Both the position numbers and the translations under genes were made by a program. Of a stretch of DNA of 60,505 nt, positions 701 to 59,823 are shown in pieces (the stretch's first letter is position 1; each line of letters starts with the position of its first letter). Source of the DNA: Candidatus Nomurabacteria bacterium (GTDB lineage Bacteria; Patescibacteriota; Minisyncoccia; Phycocordibacterales; UBA5272); assembly GCA_037134695.1 (NCBI GenBank), contig JBAXLU010000002.1, positions 1 to 60,505 of the forward strand. The letters run 5' to 3'. Under the pieces are notes generated by a model. That model was not told the DNA's origin. It worked only from the letters and a program-made list of their open reading frames with translations, and searched no databases.

Positions 701-773
701 GGTGCCTATAGTGTAATGGTTAGCACGCGGGCTTGTGGAGCCCTCAGTTCCGGTTCAAATCCGGATAGGCACA
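701..773 (+). tRNA. tRNA-His (anticodon GTG)
   Basis: Cloverleaf read by eye. Encoded G-1 plus acceptor GTGCCTA/TAGGCAC, D-arm GTGT..GCAC, anticodon loop TTGTGGA (GTG at 735-737), T-arm TCCGG-TTCAAAT-CCGGA, discriminator A, no encoded CCA. Confidence 0.85.
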
Positions 774-782
774 CTTGTAATA

Positions 783-6336: not shown

Positions 6337-7077
6337 ATGAAACCACAAGTAATATTATTTGACCTAGATGATACTTTGACCGAAAGTAAACAAAAAGTAA
6401 GTGAGGAAATGGCACAAGTTTTTTCAAGATTACTTGAAACTAGTAAAGTCGCAATTGTTTCAGGTGCAAAATTTGAACAACAATTAAATCAGTTTATTGA
6501 GTTTCTTCCAAAAGAGTCAAATTTAAAAAATCTTTTTTCTTTTCCTCAAAACGCAGCAGAATGCAGGACTTTTGATGGTAATCTATGGGTAGAGCAGTAC
6601 TCTTTTCTTTTGTTTGATGAAGAAGTCGTCGAAATTACGGGTGCTTTAAACAAGGTTCTTGAGGAAACAAAAATACTTGAAAATGAAGTTTCTTATGGTG
6701 AGTGTATAGAAAATCGTGGAGCACAAATTACTTTTTCTGCATTAGGACAAGATGCCCCTGTTTCTGCTAAAAAAACATGGGATCCTAATCAAATAAAAAG
6801 AAAAGATATACAAAAAAGATTAATGGAAATTATTCCTCAGTATGAGATTGTAATTGGCGGTATGACATCAGTCGATATTACCAAAAAGGGAATTAATAAA
6901 ACAAATGCAGTTACATGGATTTCAGAAAAATTTTCTTTACCAGTATCTGAAATGCTTTACGTTGGAGACAGTCTTTTTCCTGGAGGAAATGATGCAATCG
7001 TTATACAAACAGGAATTCCGACTATTGAGACAAAAAATCCAGAGCAAACAATAGAAATTATAAAGTCTTTTCTTTAA
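6337..7077 (+). CDS. HAD-IIB hydrolase, phosphomannomutase-like
   Basis: N-terminal DxD nucleophile motif LFDLDDTLT, a cap of IIB size, and C-terminal GDS..GGND. Confidence 0.6.
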   Translation: MKPQVILFDLDDTLTESKQKVSEEMAQVFSRLLETSKVAIVSGAKFEQQLNQFIEFLPKESNLKNLFSFPQNAAECRTFDGNLWVEQYSFLLFDEEVVEITGALNKVLEETKILENEVSYGECIENRGAQITFSALGQDAPVSAKKTWDPNQIKRKDIQKRLMEIIPQYEIVIGGMTSVDITKKGINKTNAVTWISEKFSLPVSEMLYVGDSLFPGGNDAIVIQTGIPTIETKNPEQTIEIIKSFL

Positions 7078-7098: not shown

Positions 7099-7590
7099 AT
7101 GAAAACACAGATTATTTCTTTTGAAGATTTTGAGACCATTCGCCAAACCCTTGGAACAATAGTTTGTACTTCGGGTGGCTTTGACCCAGTTCACCCAGGT
7201 CATCTTTCGTGTATACAGGAGTCTAAACAATATGGTGATACGGTAGTTGTGATTGTTAACGGTGATGCTTTTCTTAGAAATAAAAAAGGTAAACCTTTTA
7301 TGGATTTAAAAACTAGAGTTGAAATAATGTCCTATGTTAATGGTGTTGATTATATAATACCTTTTGAAATTGAGGATGATCAAACAGTTATACAAGCTTT
7401 AAAGAAAATACGACCACATATTTTTACAAAAGGTGGAGATAGAATTGACGAAACTTCTATCCCAGAATGGGAAACCTGTATAGAGCATAATATTAAAGTT
7501 ATTTCTGGTGTTGGATATAGTAAGCTTTGGAGTAGTTCAGATTTTCTAAAATCTTGGGTGGAGCATAATGATCAAAACATAACAACATAA
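7099..7590 (+). CDS. Cytidylyl/adenylyltransferase-family nucleotidyltransferase (RfaE domain II-like)
   Basis: GGFDPVHPGH (HxGH nucleotidyltransferase signature), about 160 aa. Confidence 0.7.
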   Translation: MKTQIISFEDFETIRQTLGTIVCTSGGFDPVHPGHLSCIQESKQYGDTVVVIVNGDAFLRNKKGKPFMDLKTRVEIMSYVNGVDYIIPFEIEDDQTVIQALKKIRPHIFTKGGDRIDETSIPEWETCIEHNIKVISGVGYSKLWSSSDFLKSWVEHNDQNITT

Positions 7591-7639: not shown

Positions 7640-9499
7640 ATGAAAAAGATAATTTTCTCTTATGCAGAGAATAGGTATTCTATAGATGTTGCTCTATCTA
7701 TACTTTTGATTTTGGCTTTGTTTGTTCATTATTTTCGTATATTGCCAGAATTAGATAGTGTTATTCTTATAACTTTGGCTTTGCTAGGTGTTTTTCCAGT
7801 TTTTGTAAGTGCTGTTTTTTCTATATTAGAAAAAGAATGGGCTTCTATGGACATGCTGGCATCGATCGCTCTGTTTTTTTCTATTATAAGTAATGAATGG
7901 GCCTCAGCTGTTTTTATAGCACTTATGCTTTCGTCAGCTAGAATTTTGGAAGATATAACAAAGAGTAAAACAAGAAAAAATATTGATGCACTTTTGAAAC
8001 TTCGTCCAGAAAAAGCAAAAGTAAAACAAGACGGTAAAATAGTAGAAATAAGAACAGAAGAGGTAAAAGTTGGTGATATTGTTGTGGTTGATAATGGAGA
8101 TTATATGCCAGTCGATGGCGAGGTGGTTTTAGGTGCCGCATCATTAAATGAGTCTTCTTTAACAGGGGAGTCACTTCCTGTAGGAAAAGAAATTGGTGAT
8201 AAAGTTTCTAGTGGAACTTTTATTTCATCAGGTGGCTTAGAGGTAAAAGCTCTTCATGTTGGCAAAGACACAACGCTAGAAAAAATTATTGCCCTTGTAG
8301 AAAAAGCTGAACTTGAAAAACCAAAGACACAAACTTTGGGAGAAAAGTTTGGGAAAATTTATTTAGCTGTTATGTTTGTGGGTTCTATTTTATTATTTTT
8401 AATTACTAAAAACTTAGCATTGGTCCTGTCTGTTGTGCTTGTGGTGTGTGCAGATGACATAGCTATAGCTATACCGCTTGGCTATCTGCGTGCTATAGGA
8501 TCTGCTGCAAAAATTGGAGTAATTATTAAAGGGGGAAAACATTTGGAGACACTGGGAAATGTAGAGGTTTTTGTTTTTGATAAAACAGGCACCCTAACTA
8601 CAGGGAAATTAAAAGTAACACATGTTTATGCTAGTGAAAAATCAAATGAAGACGAAGTTCTTAAATTGGGGGGAATTGTCTCAGTAAGGTCAAACCACCC
8701 TGTATCTAAATCAATTGCAGAGTTTTCAAAGTTAAAATCTGGAATAGAAATTTATCCAGAAAATGCAACTATTTTTGAGGGTAAGGGAGTAGTAGCAACA
8801 ATAGACAATATCTCTATTGTTTTAGGACGTGATATTTTCTTATCTGAAAAAAATATTTTAATTGAAGAAAATATAAAAAATAAAGCAATAGAATTTGAAA
8901 ATAAAGGTGAGAGTGTTACTTTTATTTCTAAAAATGAAGAAGTCATAGGTTTTTTTGCAGTAGCCGACACAATTAAAAAAGAAGCAAAACAAACAGTGAA
9001 AGAATTATATGATTTAGGAATAAAAAAGATTGTGATGCTTTCAGGGGACAATGAAAGAGTTGTTAGGTCAGTAGCTAATCAGATTGGTATAAAAGAATAT
9101 TATTTTGGTCTTCTTCCAGAAGATAAATTAGAAAAATTAAAAGTTTTAAATAAAAGATATAAACTGGCTATGGTTGGTGACGGGGTAAATGATGCCGCGG
9201 CCCTTTCATTGTCTGATGTAGGTATTGCTATGGGGGCTCTTGGTTCTGATTCTGCTATCGAATCCGCAGAAATTGTTCTCATGAATGATGATGTCTCAGC
9301 AATACCAAAAATAGTAAAATTAGCTAGGAACGTTCATCAGGTTTCTGTACAAGATTTTGGTATTTGGATAGTCACGAATGCTTTTGGCCTAGTTTTGGTA
9401 TTTGCGGGATATATTGGCCCATCAGGTGCGGCTGCTTATAATTTTATTTCTGATTTTTTCCCACTACTTAACTCTTTGCGTGTTAAAGTTGGGAAATAA
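7640..9499 (+). CDS. P-type ATPase (P1B-like architecture, atypical transport motif)
   Basis: FDKTGTLT phosphorylation site, GDGVNDAAAL hinge, TGES actuator motif. No N-terminal CxxC domain. Confidence 0.85.
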   Translation: MKKIIFSYAENRYSIDVALSILLILALFVHYFRILPELDSVILITLALLGVFPVFVSAVFSILEKEWASMDMLASIALFFSIISNEWASAVFIALMLSSARILEDITKSKTRKNIDALLKLRPEKAKVKQDGKIVEIRTEEVKVGDIVVVDNGDYMPVDGEVVLGAASLNESSLTGESLPVGKEIGDKVSSGTFISSGGLEVKALHVGKDTTLEKIIALVEKAELEKPKTQTLGEKFGKIYLAVMFVGSILLFLITKNLALVLSVVLVVCADDIAIAIPLGYLRAIGSAAKIGVIIKGGKHLETLGNVEVFVFDKTGTLTTGKLKVTHVYASEKSNEDEVLKLGGIVSVRSNHPVSKSIAEFSKLKSGIEIYPENATIFEGKGVVATIDNISIVLGRDIFLSEKNILIEENIKNKAIEFENKGESVTFISKNEEVIGFFAVADTIKKEAKQTVKELYDLGIKKIVMLSGDNERVVRSVANQIGIKEYYFGLLPEDKLEKLKVLNKRYKLAMVGDGVNDAAALSLSDVGIAMGALGSDSAIESAEIVLMNDDVSAIPKIVKLARNVHQVSVQDFGIWIVTNAFGLVLVFAGYIGPSGAAAYNFISDFFPLLNSLRVKVGK

Positions 9500-9604: not shown

Positions 9605-10291
9605 GTGATAGATAACTGGTATACTCTCTTGATGGAAGAATTCTTTAATAGACAGTCACTTTTCTGGAAAGATAAGACTATTTTATATCACTTATTAATC
9701 AGTGTTGTTTTGCTAATTGCTTCTTTATTTTTAAATTATTATGCTCGCTCCTATGTAAACAAAAATACATGGGATGTTGCTTCTGATTTGCTTCTAGATA
9801 ATCTACCTGTTTTTAATGTAGCCTTTTTGTTTTTCCAAGGGGCTTTTATTTTTGTACTTATCTTAATAGGTATTTCTTTATTTTACCCTAAACATATTCC
9901 TTTTATTTTAGAGAGCACAGCAGTTTTTTTCTTTGTACGATCATTTTTCATGATTATGACCCATTTATCTGCTCCATCAGTTGAGTATTATAATTATATG
10001 CATCAAGAACATCACATTAAAGAAATTTTGTTTACCATGAGTTCTGGAAATGATTTATTTTTCTCCGCACACACTGGTTATCCATTTCTTTTAGCTTTTA
10101 TATTTTGGCAAAGTAAAAAACTTAGATATTTTTTCTTAGCATGTTCTGTTACTGGTGCCATTGTTGTTATATTGGGACACCTTCATTATTCCATTGATGT
10201 TTTCTCAGCTTTCTTTATTGCTTATGGAATATTTATAATATCAAAAAATCTTTTTAAAAAAGAATACAATTTGATTTCTTTAGAAAGTTAA
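9605..10291 (+). CDS. PAP2-superfamily-like membrane protein (PAP2_C/sphingomyelin-synthase-like)
   Basis: Polytopic, with SAHTGYPF and HYSIDV motifs resembling PAP2 C2/C3. GTG start in the ORF track; an alternative ATG lies at 9632. Confidence 0.5.
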   Translation: MIDNWYTLLMEEFFNRQSLFWKDKTILYHLLISVVLLIASLFLNYYARSYVNKNTWDVASDLLLDNLPVFNVAFLFFQGAFIFVLILIGISLFYPKHIPFILESTAVFFFVRSFFMIMTHLSAPSVEYYNYMHQEHHIKEILFTMSSGNDLFFSAHTGYPFLLAFIFWQSKKLRYFFLACSVTGAIVVILGHLHYSIDVFSAFFIAYGIFIISKNLFKKEYNLISLES

Positions 10292-24405: not shown

Positions 24406-24513
24406 TTCGACGAGCGAGAGCGAGGAAGATACTGAGCACAACAGTACGAAGTGTTAGAAGTTAGGGGTTAGAAGATAATACAGAGACCAGAAGACAGATA
24501 GCAGAAAATACAC

Positions 24514-24541
24514 AAAAACGGCACCTTCGGTGCCGTTTTTG
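24514..24541 (+). terminator. Intrinsic terminator (UUCG tetraloop)
   Basis: AAAAACGGCACC-ttcg-GGTGCCGTTTTT. Confidence 0.85.
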
Positions 24542-24573
24542 CCTTGTAAAATAAGGAATTTTGGTGATTTATA

Positions 24574-24602
24574 TTGACTTTTAGTCCAAAATGTGCTATT
24601 CT
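24574..24602 (+). promoter_or_regulatory. Sigma-70-like promoter of the GC-rich cassette
   Basis: TTGACT (24574-24579), 17 nt spacer, TATTCT (24597-24602). Confidence 0.5.
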
Positions 24603-24635
24603 GTATCAGATAATCGTTCTTTTACAGTTTTTGAT

Positions 24636-24703
24636 GTTTACCATAGCTTCAAGCTTTAATTCCTTCTCAAACTTTGAGAAAAAGGTTTGAAGCTATGGTA
24701 AAC
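24636..24703 (+). promoter_or_regulatory. 68-nt near-perfect palindromic leader hairpin
   Basis: GTTTACCATAGCTTCAA (24636-24652) pairs with TTGAAGCTATGGTAAAC (24687-24703). The stem extends through wobble pairs and is capped by the inner hairpin TTCTCAA-act-TTGAGAA. Confidence 0.6.
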
Positions 24704-24780
24704 AAACTTTCGTTTGAGCCCTCTAGCATGGTAAAGCTACGCTTCTGTGCGTGGTTAGCCAAATTTCAGGAGTTATACAA

Positions 24781-25398
24781 ATGAACAAGCCTTCACAAGG
24801 TCAGGTTCTCAACGCAATCGCCATTTTGATGAATAATGCGGATTGGGGGGCTATAAGTAGCACCAGTTTGCAAAGCTTTATCGACAATCCTCGCGCCGCA
24901 GGGTCACAGTTTACTGCTTTCCTAAAATACGGAGGTGTCGAACAGCCCAAGGTGGTTGTCCATATTGACCGCACCTCTGCTTTCGACCCCGTCGCCTTCA
25001 TCGGCGAAGGCTGGTCGTTTGCCGAAGCACGCAACCCGCGTTCGGCTGCCCTCGGCCTTCTCGATTATTACAGCAAGGTGAAGCTGTCGACGGACTGGCT
25101 GGAAGGCAAGTCGAGTGTCGACGGCGAAACCCGGCGTACGCGAATTCTCGTCGATACCGCAAGCACCCCGCTCAACGCCGACCATTTTCTCGACCTCTGG
25201 AACAACAAAGAAAAGATTCCCGAGGAATGGAAGAAGGTCAAGGGTGTGATCACCTTCGATGGTGATGTCCTTCGGGACTCGCGCGGTGACCGTTACATCC
25301 TGTGCTTGTACTGGAGCGATGGCCGGTGGTCCTGGTACGGCCATTGGCTCGGCCGCAAGTGGCACGCTGCCTACCCGTCTGCCGTTCTGGCAAGTTAG
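24781..25398 (+). CDS. Orphan GC-rich hypothetical protein (205 aa), no family recognised
   Basis: AGGAG (24768-24772) lies 8 nt before ATG 24781. Long open frame in DNA of about 60% G+C. The ORF-track GTG start at 24751 is less likely. Confidence 0.65.
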   Translation: MNKPSQGQVLNAIAILMNNADWGAISSTSLQSFIDNPRAAGSQFTAFLKYGGVEQPKVVVHIDRTSAFDPVAFIGEGWSFAEARNPRSAALGLLDYYSKVKLSTDWLEGKSSVDGETRRTRILVDTASTPLNADHFLDLWNNKEKIPEEWKKVKGVITFDGDVLRDSRGDRYILCLYWSDGRWSWYGHWLGRKWHAAYPSAVLAS

Positions 25399-25623
25399 AA
25401 CTTCGGATTAGTTCACTTAGGTCTTTTAGACCCTTTGACCTTAGTCCTTGAAGCCGATTGGTGCCGTCGGTAACTGCGCTGGCATGGATGACGCCAGTAA
25501 TGTTTACATCGGCCAGCCGGTGCAAAACAAAATACTGGCGGCGGCCATTGCCAAGAACAAATCTTTGTTCTCAAACGGCAATCTGACTGCCGGCAACGCC
25601 AAGAAGTGACAAATGTAGCCACC

Positions 25624-25679
25624 AACCCGCCCCATTGGAGACCCGCAAGCGTCTCCATATGTGAGCGGGTTTTCTTTTT
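25624..25679 (+). terminator. Nested-hairpin intrinsic terminator inside the GC-rich cassette
   Basis: Outer stem AACCCGC (25624-30)/GCGGGTT (25665-71), inner hairpin TGGAGAC/GTCTCCA, then TTTTCTTTTT. Confidence 0.65.
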
Positions 25680-25922
25680 GTATTTAAACCAAACCCCAGT
25701 TTTACATTTTGAAAACCGCCACGGAGCGTGGTAGCGAGTGAGAACGAATTCTCTAGCTTGCCACGGCCAGCCGGCGTGGCAAGAAAAGGACACGGCTTTT
25801 TAAAATGAAAGATAAAAATAAAAAGAAATTTTGAATGATTAGGATTATGTTTTCTTATTTCTATGATCCAGCTACACACAGTGTTGCTGGGTCAAATTTT
25901 GCTATTTGGCCCACAGCAAAAT

Positions 25923-25951
25923 TTGACTTATATAACTAGTTAATGTAATAT
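25923..25951 (+). promoter_or_regulatory. Candidate secE-nusG promoter
   Basis: TTGACT (25923-28), 17 nt spacer, TAATAT (25946-51). The -35 box lies inside the right arm of a 13-bp inverted repeat. Confidence 0.5.
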
Positions 25952-26026: not shown

Positions 26027-26209
26027 ATGAATCTATTCACTTATTTTAAGGAAACAAAAGCAGAACTTAAACAAGTTACTTTTCCTAAAACTTCACAAAC
26101 AATAAATTACACAATACTAGTTGTTGTTATATCTATTGTAGTTGCTCTTGTATTAGGAGGAGTCGACTTAGGTTTCAAGACAGTATTAGCAAAGCTTCTC
26201 GCTCGCTAG
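26027..26209 (+). CDS. secE: Preprotein translocase subunit SecE
   Basis: 60 aa, KAELKQVTFP followed by a single TM helix, located upstream of nusG. Confidence 0.9.
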   Translation: MNLFTYFKETKAELKQVTFPKTSQTINYTILVVVISIVVALVLGGVDLGFKTVLAKLLAR

Positions 26210-59390: not shown

Positions 59391-59434
59391 AAAATAAATT
59401 AGACCGCATCATATGATGCGGTCTAATTTATTTT
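59391..59434 (-). terminator. 44-nt perfect palindrome terminating ssrA
   Basis: AAAATAAATTAGACCGCATCAT|ATGATGCGGTCTAATTTATTTT. Confidence 0.8.
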
Positions 59435-59435
59435 G

Positions 59436-59823
59436 TGGAAGCGGAGGGGTTCGAACCCTCGTGTATACCGGAACGGTGAACGCGTCTACTGTATATAGTT
59501 TGCTTATTGTATTCGCATTTATTATATAAAACAAACGAAAACAATAAATGTATAGCATAATTATTTCGATTAAATTGCTATGCTACAAAGTAATCTACCT
59601 CCGCTGTTATATTGCCCAGACCTTTTCCGCAGATACGAAAGGGAAGGACACCAGATCGGTCTAAATTAGACGAATGCTGGAACTAGACCAAACGCATAAG
59701 GCGAAGGAATAGCTTTTCCAGTTGTTTTTGCAACATGGGTTCTCTAAAGTTTACGAGTTATAGAGAAGTCTCGATACAGCACATACAACCATTATCGACA
59801 TATCAAAGCCAAAGTACGCTCCC
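59436..59823 (-). ncRNA. ssrA: tmRNA (SsrA)
   Basis: On the minus strand, 5' GGGAGCG pairs with 3' CGCTTCC-A, with the G3:U pair. T-arm GAGGG-TTCGAAC-CCCTC and a CUCGUAAA element are present. Candidate tag ORF is GCA AAA ACA ... GUC UAA (AKTTGKAIPSPYAFGLVPAFV), with its stop in hairpin GTCTA-att-TAGAC. Located directly downstream of smpB. Confidence 0.85.

Follow-up and report, generated by a model that had tools for sequence, protein, structure and literature searches.

A unit at about 24.58–25.93 kb of a 60,505-nt stretch of Candidatus Nomurabacteria DNA (contig JBAXLU010000002.1, assembly GCA_037134695.1; the whole stretch is called the window in the following) is very probably a solitary target module that has been separated from the other parts of its diversity-generating retroelement (DGR). 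DGRs are reverse-transcriptase systems that rewrite the tip of a binding protein. We propose that a DGR target module of the type found in the candidate phyla radiation (CPR) would here have lodged in the slot between a SIMPL gene and secE, comprising a sigma-70-type promoter, a leader of ~170 nt, a gene for a 205-aa protein, a variable repeat (VR) of 126 nt and a post-VR element of ~55 nt. In complete relatives, reverse transcription of the RNA of a template repeat (TR) introduces errors at adenines, and the resulting cDNA takes the place of the VR. The VR of the window would have been written by a DGR of the type here called class A, before or during the history of what is now a chimeric gene.

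Protein family and association with retroelements

An earlier note on this DNA had described the open reading frame (ORF) of the unit as an orphan of no recognised family. Indeed, Pfam, NCBIfam and PHROGs gave no consistent match for the ORF or its relatives, and a sequence-profile search of the PDB with the ORF gave none at all, but the ORF has 92 homologues, all unnamed and none with a Pfam domain, which belong to a DGR target family. A scan of one genome per species returned 147 relatives, 80 of which were kept, nearly all of them from metagenome-assembled genomes (MAGs) of CPR/Patescibacteria, and a metagenome scan for close relatives gave 6 loci, none closer than 68%. The analysis covered 92 fetched family loci, some on short contigs; L001–L110 and P0xxx are labels for fetched homologous loci and database proteins, respectively.

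Behind the homologue in L001, L002, L003, L099–L101, L103 and L104 come a bAvd gene on the reverse strand and then an RVT_1 reverse transcriptase (RT). Overall, an RT lies 0.5–1.9 kb downstream in 31 of the 92 loci and an Avd at the same distance in 32, and about two thirds of the fetched loci, some of them on short contigs, show no RT within the sequence examined. In the RT-linked loci, the last ~126–130 nt of the homologue recur 450–500 nt downstream with 85–87% identity, and the mismatches fall on adenines of the downstream copy (14 of 16 in L001, 18 of 19 in L002). Such VR/TR pairs of 120–130 nt, with mismatches almost exclusively at TR adenines, were found in ~35 loci, and the window protein is 50–82% identical to proteins of genes whose VR/TR pairs adjoin Avd and RVT_1. 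Since the neighbours are TR, avd and RT and the VR/TR mismatches are adenine-specific, sequence context identifies the ORF family as the predicted target, i.e. the variable protein, of CPR-type DGRs. Two classes of family members are distinguished here, class A (208 aa) and class B (181–196 aa). Diversification is visible as active in the class A proteins P0016, P0019 and P0021, which show no difference at 165 aa, but differ at 11–14 of 43 VR residues. The VR motif of the family reads LYWxDGxWxWxxxWLxxxWxAxxPSAVLAS and seems to be unlike the usual motif of the formylglycine-generating-enzyme (FGE) type.

Complete loci are ordered as target module, intrinsic terminator, promoter-like site, a pre-TR region of ~270 nt, TR, reverse-strand avd and RT. 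The pre-TR region is conserved (L002 ~6690–6957; also L001, L003, L016, L019, L099 and L104), carries a TTGAC..TACAAT promoter-like site ahead of it, has no Rfam match and presumably makes up the 5' portion of the template RNA of the DGR. An identical TR (130/130) was recorded at L002 6958–7087, L099/L103 5958–6087, L104 5967–6096 and L019 8867–8996, and the 5' parts of the target genes in genomes sharing it differ by 3–15%. For L019, where no RT or avd lies within the flank, the TR was also noted to be without 7 adenines, with several positions reading, by eye, as in its own VR, so that this locus looks like a decaying element. L016 (8996–9121), on the 680-kb contig VMEP01000001.1, contains a target and a TR (9 of 9 mismatches at adenines), has no RT or avd within 7–8 kb on either side, and shares its contig with a second family gene (L081), 280 kb off, whose VR does not match the L016 TR. 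More than one VR per TR was seen twice: in L022 one TR (8973–9098) goes with two VRs, the second of which (12–141) lies 8 kb upstream and has 14 of 19 mismatches at adenines, and L045 has tandem family genes, each with a leader, whose VRs (8281–8403 and 9192–9314) share one TR (9655–9777).

Variable repeat and mosaic structure of the window gene

Aligned over 126 nt with the TR of L002, a heterologous TR from another genome, the window VR shows 22 mismatches, of which 20 lie at TR adenines. In the control comparison, 24 mismatches separated the window VR from that of L002, with only 8 of them at adenines, and the mismatches to the VRs of other loci likewise lacked an adenine bias. At non-adenine positions, the window VR matches the class A TR at 90 of 93 sites, compared to 84 of 94 and 78 of 93 for class B TRs. 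As judged from these alignments, the adenine-specific pattern relative to the class A TR is the signature of DGR mutagenesis.

The gene is a mosaic of both classes. Residues 1–45 are 80% identical to class A and ~25% to class B; for residues 81–162 the relation is reversed (class B 93%, class A 39%), and the leader is class-A-like. A blastn search with the VR found no second copy of 25230–25420, and hence no TR, across the 60.5-kb window, and tblastn with two RTs and two Avds gave neither an RT nor an avd there (best E 2.1). The exact protein was found on three contigs, namely the 1.3-kb L012 and two of 50–200 kb, the window's own contig presumably being among the latter; all carrying contigs encode the same protein, and the searched databases contain no sequence variant or near-identical relative of it. 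Trans targets were also looked for in four same-genome pairs of family loci (L016/L081, L030/L037, L038/L063 and L079/L092), where no solitary VR matched the TR of the other locus.

Predicted fold

An AlphaFold2 model of residues 68–205 (window 24982–25395) reached a predicted local distance difference test (pLDDT) score of 96.9 and a predicted template-modelling (pTM) score of 0.90. The modelled domain consists of two helices followed by a five-stranded sheet, most of which would be encoded by the VR. Foldseek searches against the PDB (full-length and domain-only) and against BFVD gave no significant match (best E 0.23), with C-type lectin chains crowding the top of the list at E 0.2–3 and TM scores of about 0.2. 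In the model, the order of secondary-structure elements is compatible with a C-type lectin fold, and the VR-bearing domain may represent a highly divergent subclass of the C-type lectins or else a different fold with room for DGR variation. The protein would be ligand-binding, with its specificity residing on the VR-encoded face of the beta-sheet.

Post-VR element and 3' arm

VR/TR homology ends exactly after GTTCTGGCAA in all aligned loci. Directly behind, an element of ~55 nt (GTTAG...), which includes the stop codon, is kept in all aligned family loci with or without RT. It contains a short inverted repeat, GGTCT-TTT-AGACC, with a 5-bp stem; as a DNA hairpin it is predicted to fold weakly (window z −2.3, three relatives −0.2 to −1.6). 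By analogy with the Bordetella phage system (PMC3240598), this element may be the equivalent of the initiation-of-mutagenic-homing (IMH) site plus hairpin that serves there for target recognition.

Family homology of the window stops at ~25452, ahead of the family terminator, and other solitary copies reach further, L005 past the terminator and L009 past the TR promoter. The note had taken the ~400 nt behind the gene for a GC-rich, untranslated and structured RNA arm with a nested terminator and several hairpins. Terminator and hairpins are present, but the region is not untranslated throughout, as 25448–25609 is the 3' remnant of another gene. This ORF (third-codon-position G+C, GC3, 0.67; in-frame stop at 25442) was found by phmmer to align to the C-terminal ~50 residues of unnamed proteins of 99–192 aa, five of which have 152–192 aa. 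The best match is P0214 (residues 99–152, 54% identity, E 1.4e-6), followed by P0215, P0217, P0218, P0219 and P0222; a word-indexed protein search with the 52-aa tail peptide had found only the peptide itself, the C-terminal matches appearing in the exhaustive phmmer search. Most proteins of this second family have a hydrophobic, signal-peptide-like N-terminus, and they have in common the C-terminal motif YIGxPxQNxMLAxAIxKNxxLFxxGNLTxxxAKKW and no Pfam domain. The in-frame stop at 25442 shows the first two thirds of the tail gene to be missing. These alignments place a recombination junction at ~25450, where the target module gives way to the 3' end of an unrelated gene.

The terminator hairpin of the truncated gene (dG −13.6 kcal/mol, z −3.7; none of 200 shuffles folds as well) would now end the cassette transcript. 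The supposed RNA arm thus resolves into ~55 conserved nt, a truncated foreign gene, a terminator and ~190 nt of unconserved hairpins. No family locus matched the DNA past ~25452. Apart from L012, which is identical, the fetched loci (blastn and tblastx with 25440–25860) gave weak matches no longer than 49 nt, and phages and plasmids (blastn with 25399–25840) gave no match.

The 5' leader

The promoter and a leader core of ~110 nt are conserved in distant family members, and a TTGAC-17-TATAAT-type promoter also precedes the leader in L002, L019, L016 and L021–L023. A covariance model of the leader, R1, finds 46 full-length plus-strand copies at E<=1e-3; each of those compared by coordinates adjoins a family gene on its upstream side, and the solitary copies L005 and L009 have a leader as well. 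The palindrome claimed for the leader is present, at a measured length of 70 nt (24635–24704; 23-nt arms, 91% complementary) instead of 68, and belongs to a conserved, structured element with a covarying helix and without an Rfam family. In Rfam 15, searched with both gathering and E-value cut-offs, only sub-threshold miRNA-hairpin matches were obtained on the palindrome and nothing in seven complete family loci.

The 15 bp of helix P1 are 92.5% paired, with compensatory changes in 10 of 15 pairs and 31–55% pairing in slid controls, and it contains 115 double-change cells compared to 33 in shuffles, all these covariation counts stemming from related sequences in alignments fitted to the model. 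Among 13 solid P1 pairs, G-U outnumbers A-C by 26 to 11, which mildly favours a plus-strand RNA over a DNA palindrome. The apical hairpin folds in nearly all copies.

In the region corresponding to window 24690–24728 (alignment of 46 leader copies, loci L001–L104), one subtype shows a 3' strand of the P1 base (GACTAC, GACCAT, GGCGAC, GGCTAC...) which is also complementary to the 6-mer just before the CC.CT.GCA box, with 6/6 complementarity in 13 of 41 distinct copies, a value reached in 0 of 2000 shuffles. This complementarity suggests two mutually exclusive leader helices, as in a regulatory switch. The window leader is of the other subtype, with a separate local hairpin at 24703–24716.

A further motif at the 5' side of the leader, CTAACTTGC, agrees exactly, when reverse-complemented, with the invariant end of the VR together with the stop codon, GCAAGTTAG (L002 5856–5864 and 6619–6627, respectively; VR end in the window 25390–25398). 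A matching co-change of TCAACTTGC with GCAAGTTGA occurs in four copies (L045 twice, L039 and L033) and is reached in 4 of 5000 shuffles over all copies, losing significance once duplicates are collapsed. The window leader is without CTAACTTGC (~24628–24636), which most DGR-linked copies keep.

In the literature searched, we found no description of this leader, nor of a host-independent G+C content of target genes, and the leader RNA seems to be the most novel part of the unit and apparently undescribed. It is conceivable, though we hold it only tentatively, that the leader (~110–170 nt) represents a new class of cis-acting RNA for CPR DGR targets, in which a two-state switch, with the P1 base competing against a downstream helix, and pairing of CTAACTTGC with GCAAGTTAG would couple target expression, or RNA/DNA structure, to retrohoming. 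A reading of the leader hairpin as an attC site of an integron was dropped; no fit to the core-site consensus was apparent, and there is no integrase.

Base composition

The G+C counts made by hand in the note proved exact on recounting (38/60 for 25081–25140, 16/60 for 26041–26100 in secE), and the contrast holds over the whole island, with 54.3% for 24850–25800 compared to 34.0% for the remainder of the 60.5 kb. The island contains the top 951-nt stretch of the window (0.536, mean 0.343, sd 0.033) as well as its GC-richest 500-nt bin (0.570). The note had read this contrast as compositionally foreign DNA, possibly of recent acquisition. The contrast alone does not support this reading, since GC richness of the gene is found in every host. 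The variable-protein gene has a G+C content of 0.559 ± 0.057 in 84 loci with flanks of 0.28 to 0.63, and the slope of gene on flank G+C is 0.29. Its GC3 is 0.66–0.80, in contrast to 0.29–0.45 for the RT of the same cassettes, where avd is, like the RT, AT-rich. Of 91 family loci, 74 show the contrast, and they stem from many independent assemblies. High G+C is therefore a trait of the gene family whatever the host, of unexplained cause, and composition alone is no evidence of recent acquisition. Adenine-specific depletion as its source was rejected, A and T being equally low.

Insertion site

The placement of the unit as an insertion between the SIMPL gene and secE is borne out by related loci. 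L107 represents the empty site: its SIMPL protein is 93% identical, and only 210 nt, with the SIMPL terminator and a single promoter (ATTGACTT-17-GTAATAT), separate the SIMPL gene from secE. L108 and L109 (85% identical) have both flanks as in the window and other cargo between them, a 188-aa ORF of no family with 44% G+C. On the left, window and L108 have in common promoter P1 and the sequence TTGACTTTTAGTCYAAAAYGTGCTAT; on the right, homology resumes at ~25869 with a covarying hairpin and promoter P2. This hairpin (25890–25927) is kept in L108 by compensatory changes, from TTTTGC/GCAAAA to TTTCGCC/GGCGAAA. The insert limits are 24582..25932 relative to L107, bounded by the TTGACTT of two −35 boxes, and about 24606..25868 relative to L108 (slot coordinates: window 24574–24605 and 25869–25951; L107 985–1060; L108 5860–5905 and 6780–6870). 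The SIMPL–secE intergenic region is thus a variable slot in this lineage. L110 diverges directly after the SIMPL terminator.

The direct repeat that the note saw bracketing the unit (24548–69 and 25815–40) does not hold as an insertion scar. It is AT-rich and of near-chance quality with a third match at 7581, it does not lie at the boundary, and its left copy belongs to the host DNA, since the empty site has it too. In agreement with the note, the unit contains no recombinase or transposase ORF, and marks of an autonomous mobile element or integron were absent from it: it lacks terminal inverted repeats, and the 7-nt TTGACTT of the two promoters is all that could count as a target duplication. 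An independent Logan contig, L012 (1302 nt), matches window 24480–25781 at 100%; the left junction and the island are consequently not artefacts of one assembly.

Annotated features

The features of the region are collected in Table 1. The promoter, the AGGAG-8-ATG start with its ATG at 24781 and the 205-codon ORF at 24781–25398 were all present as the note had given them. Elsewhere in the window, Rfam and ARAGORN matched only a transfer-messenger RNA gene (59433–59823, minus strand, 82 bits) and tRNA-His (702–774, plus strand), and neither gave a tRNA-Trp upstream of secE in the window.

Table 1. Features of the SIMPL–secE region, in positions of the window.
Feature	Position	Strand	Basis and remarks
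SIMPL-gene terminator hairpin	24512..24542	+	terminator scan; host DNA outside the insert; kept in empty-site L107 and in L108–L110
Promoter P1 (TTGACT-17-TATTCT), drives the cassette	24574..24602	+	promoter scan
Structured 5' leader of the variable-protein gene	24606..24780	+	covariance-model match 24611–24731
Leader main helix P1, with apical hairpin	24635–24704	+	covariation
Leader hairpin P2	24703–24716	+	folds in nearly all copies
Conserved leader box GAGCCCTCTAGCA	24716–24728	+	
Shine-Dalgarno AGGAG	24768–24772	+	
Predicted DGR variable (target) protein gene, 205 aa	24781..25398	+	92 homologues, context next to bAvd and RVT_1
Variable repeat (VR)	25268..25393	+	comparison with TR of L002
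Post-VR element, stop codon included	25394..25452	+	conserved in all aligned family loci
3' remnant of unrelated small secreted-protein gene, last ~52 codons	25448..25609	+	phmmer
Intrinsic terminator of truncated gene (nested hairpin 25624–25672 and T-run)	25624..25680	+	fold
Unconserved cargo tail: hairpin cluster 25705–25806, then AT-rich	25705..25868	+	fold z −4.3
Right flank in common with L108: hairpin 25890–25927, secE promoter P2	25869..25951	+	fold z −5.6
secE promoter P2 (TTGACT-17-TAATAT)	25923–25951	+	promoter scan; −35 box in hairpin 3' arm

Discussion

Three points weigh against the assignment of the insert to a detached DGR target module. For the window copy, the DGR link depends on homology and on comparison with the TR of a different genome, the cognate TR, avd and RT not having been found within the window; neither among known DGR variable proteins nor among other PDB entries does the modelled domain find a significant structural match; and class A TRs show no nucleotide differences even between genomes with 15% divergence of the genes, so that the near-perfect non-adenine match does not date the last mutagenesis. 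We slightly favour a window copy that is by now frozen and would be expressed from its own promoter with a fixed VR, because it is fused to a foreign gene fragment, no DGR part lies anywhere in the 60 kb, VR variants are lacking and the leader motif has decayed.

Rather unlikely, but still the strongest of the alternatives, is a window gene that serves as a remote active target, in which a class-A-type DGR elsewhere in the same small genome rewrites 25268–25393 in trans. The copy is intact in its ORF, promoter, leader, VR scaffold and post-VR element, 20 of the 22 differences from the class A TR lie at adenines, and a class-B-like core with a class-A-like VR is the expected product of retrohoming from a class A TR; yet the 60.5 kb hold no RT, avd or TR, and the module shares its arrival or rearrangement with a foreign gene fragment. 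There is precedent for trans action as well as for remote targets (PMC3240598, PMC5758913), and within the family the second VR of L022 lies 8 kb from its TR and L045 has two VRs per TR, but none of the solitary VRs in the four same-genome pairs matched the other locus's TR. Furthermore, the exact protein on three contigs comes with no known VR variant, and the window leader is without the CTAACTTGC motif that most DGR-linked copies keep.

The note's own proposal was an undescribed RNA-plus-protein system, or else an autonomous mobile cassette, in which an orphan protein lies between two structured RNA arms. The leader is truly conserved, structured and absent from Rfam, the protein has no named family, and the unit is an insertion relative to L107, but the ORF belongs to a DGR target family tied to TR-avd-RT in 31 loci by VR/TR signatures, and the 3' arm is not a conserved RNA, being unconserved past 55 nt and composed of a truncated gene and terminators. 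A mobile cassette is further contradicted by the lack of a recombinase, of terminal inverted repeats and of a target duplication beyond TTGACTT, and by the left copy of the proposed repeat being host DNA, which makes this proposal very improbable in either form. Least probable of all, to a degree that we neglect it, is an assembly chimera or contaminant, i.e. a GC-rich fragment mis-joined into an AT-rich CPR contig, as could be suspected from the sharp 20-point jump in G+C and from the contigs of the relatives L110 and L012 ending near the site, because the independent L012 covers left junction and island at 100%, the exact protein is also encoded on two contigs of 50–200 kb, L108 has the same flanks around other cargo, the same contrast occurs at 74 of 91 family loci, and the AT-rich leader, itself a component of the family unit, runs on into the GC-rich ORF without a break.

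As a detached DGR target module, the insert can be compared with known systems. Paul et al. (2017) reportedly gave the first catalogue of CPR/Patescibacteria DGRs. CPR DGR targets without recognisable domains have been described (Roux et al. 2021, clade 2, PMC8144416), and the window family agrees with this clade in its target, which has neither a transmembrane segment nor a recognisable domain, and in its relatives, almost all from CPR MAGs and, where complete, consisting of target, TR, Avd and RVT_1 with adenine-specific mismatches. What sets the window copy apart is its fusion to a foreign gene fragment and the lack of a TR, an avd and an RT over 60 kb. Non-adjacent, remote targets are known, e.g. 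from Treponema denticola (Wu et al. 2018, PMC5758913), and have been reported for other DGR lineages, not for CPR. With these, the window copy shares a VR-bearing gene away from the RT that has kept its putative downstream recognition element; in contrast, theirs are defined by a same-genome TR which matches the VR save for A-to-N changes (PMC5758913), and the window holds none.

For the Bordetella phage, it is known that a target needs no more than IMH plus hairpin and that avd-TR-RT is able to work on it in trans (Guo et al. 2011, PMC3240598). The mtd gene of BPP-1 resembles the window gene in a VR at the 3' end of the ORF, in VR/TR homology that ends at a defined point (here GTTCTGGCAA) and in a conserved element with a short inverted repeat directly after the VR. 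However, the window family has neither the (GC)14 element nor a GC-rich stem of 7–10 bp with a GRNA loop, its 5-bp stem (GGTCT/AGACC) being weakly favoured (z −2.3), and it keeps a conserved leader, whereas sequences upstream of the VR are dispensable in BPP-1. The C-type-lectin-fold proteins Mtd, TvpA and AvpA (PMC5006420) likewise have a C-terminal VR that encodes strands of an antiparallel beta-sheet after two helices, as predicted for the window domain, and invariant aromatics (W/Y) interspersed with variable positions. AvpA was similarly unassignable by sequence methods in silico (PMC5006420). Unlike these three, the window family lacks a significant Foldseek match to any PDB chain.

The element itself is of a known kind, and the known DGR mechanism is unchanged by the present findings. 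For annotation, they imply that a compositionally foreign orphan ORF in a CPR genome can be recognisable as a DGR variable protein without an RT nearby, and that high G+C in this target family should not be read as recent transfer. The family additionally offers a compact VR-bearing domain of 140 residues with a confident model and no structural match. If the tentative view of the leader as a new class of cis-acting RNA holds, the host-independent G+C content of ~56% in the target gene and the unmatched fold would be further undescribed properties of this DGR clade. Modules that are cut at different points past the VR, as in the window, L005 and L009, delimit what a target must keep, while leader covariation together with the apparent alternative helix suggests that the expression of these hypervariable proteins is regulated.

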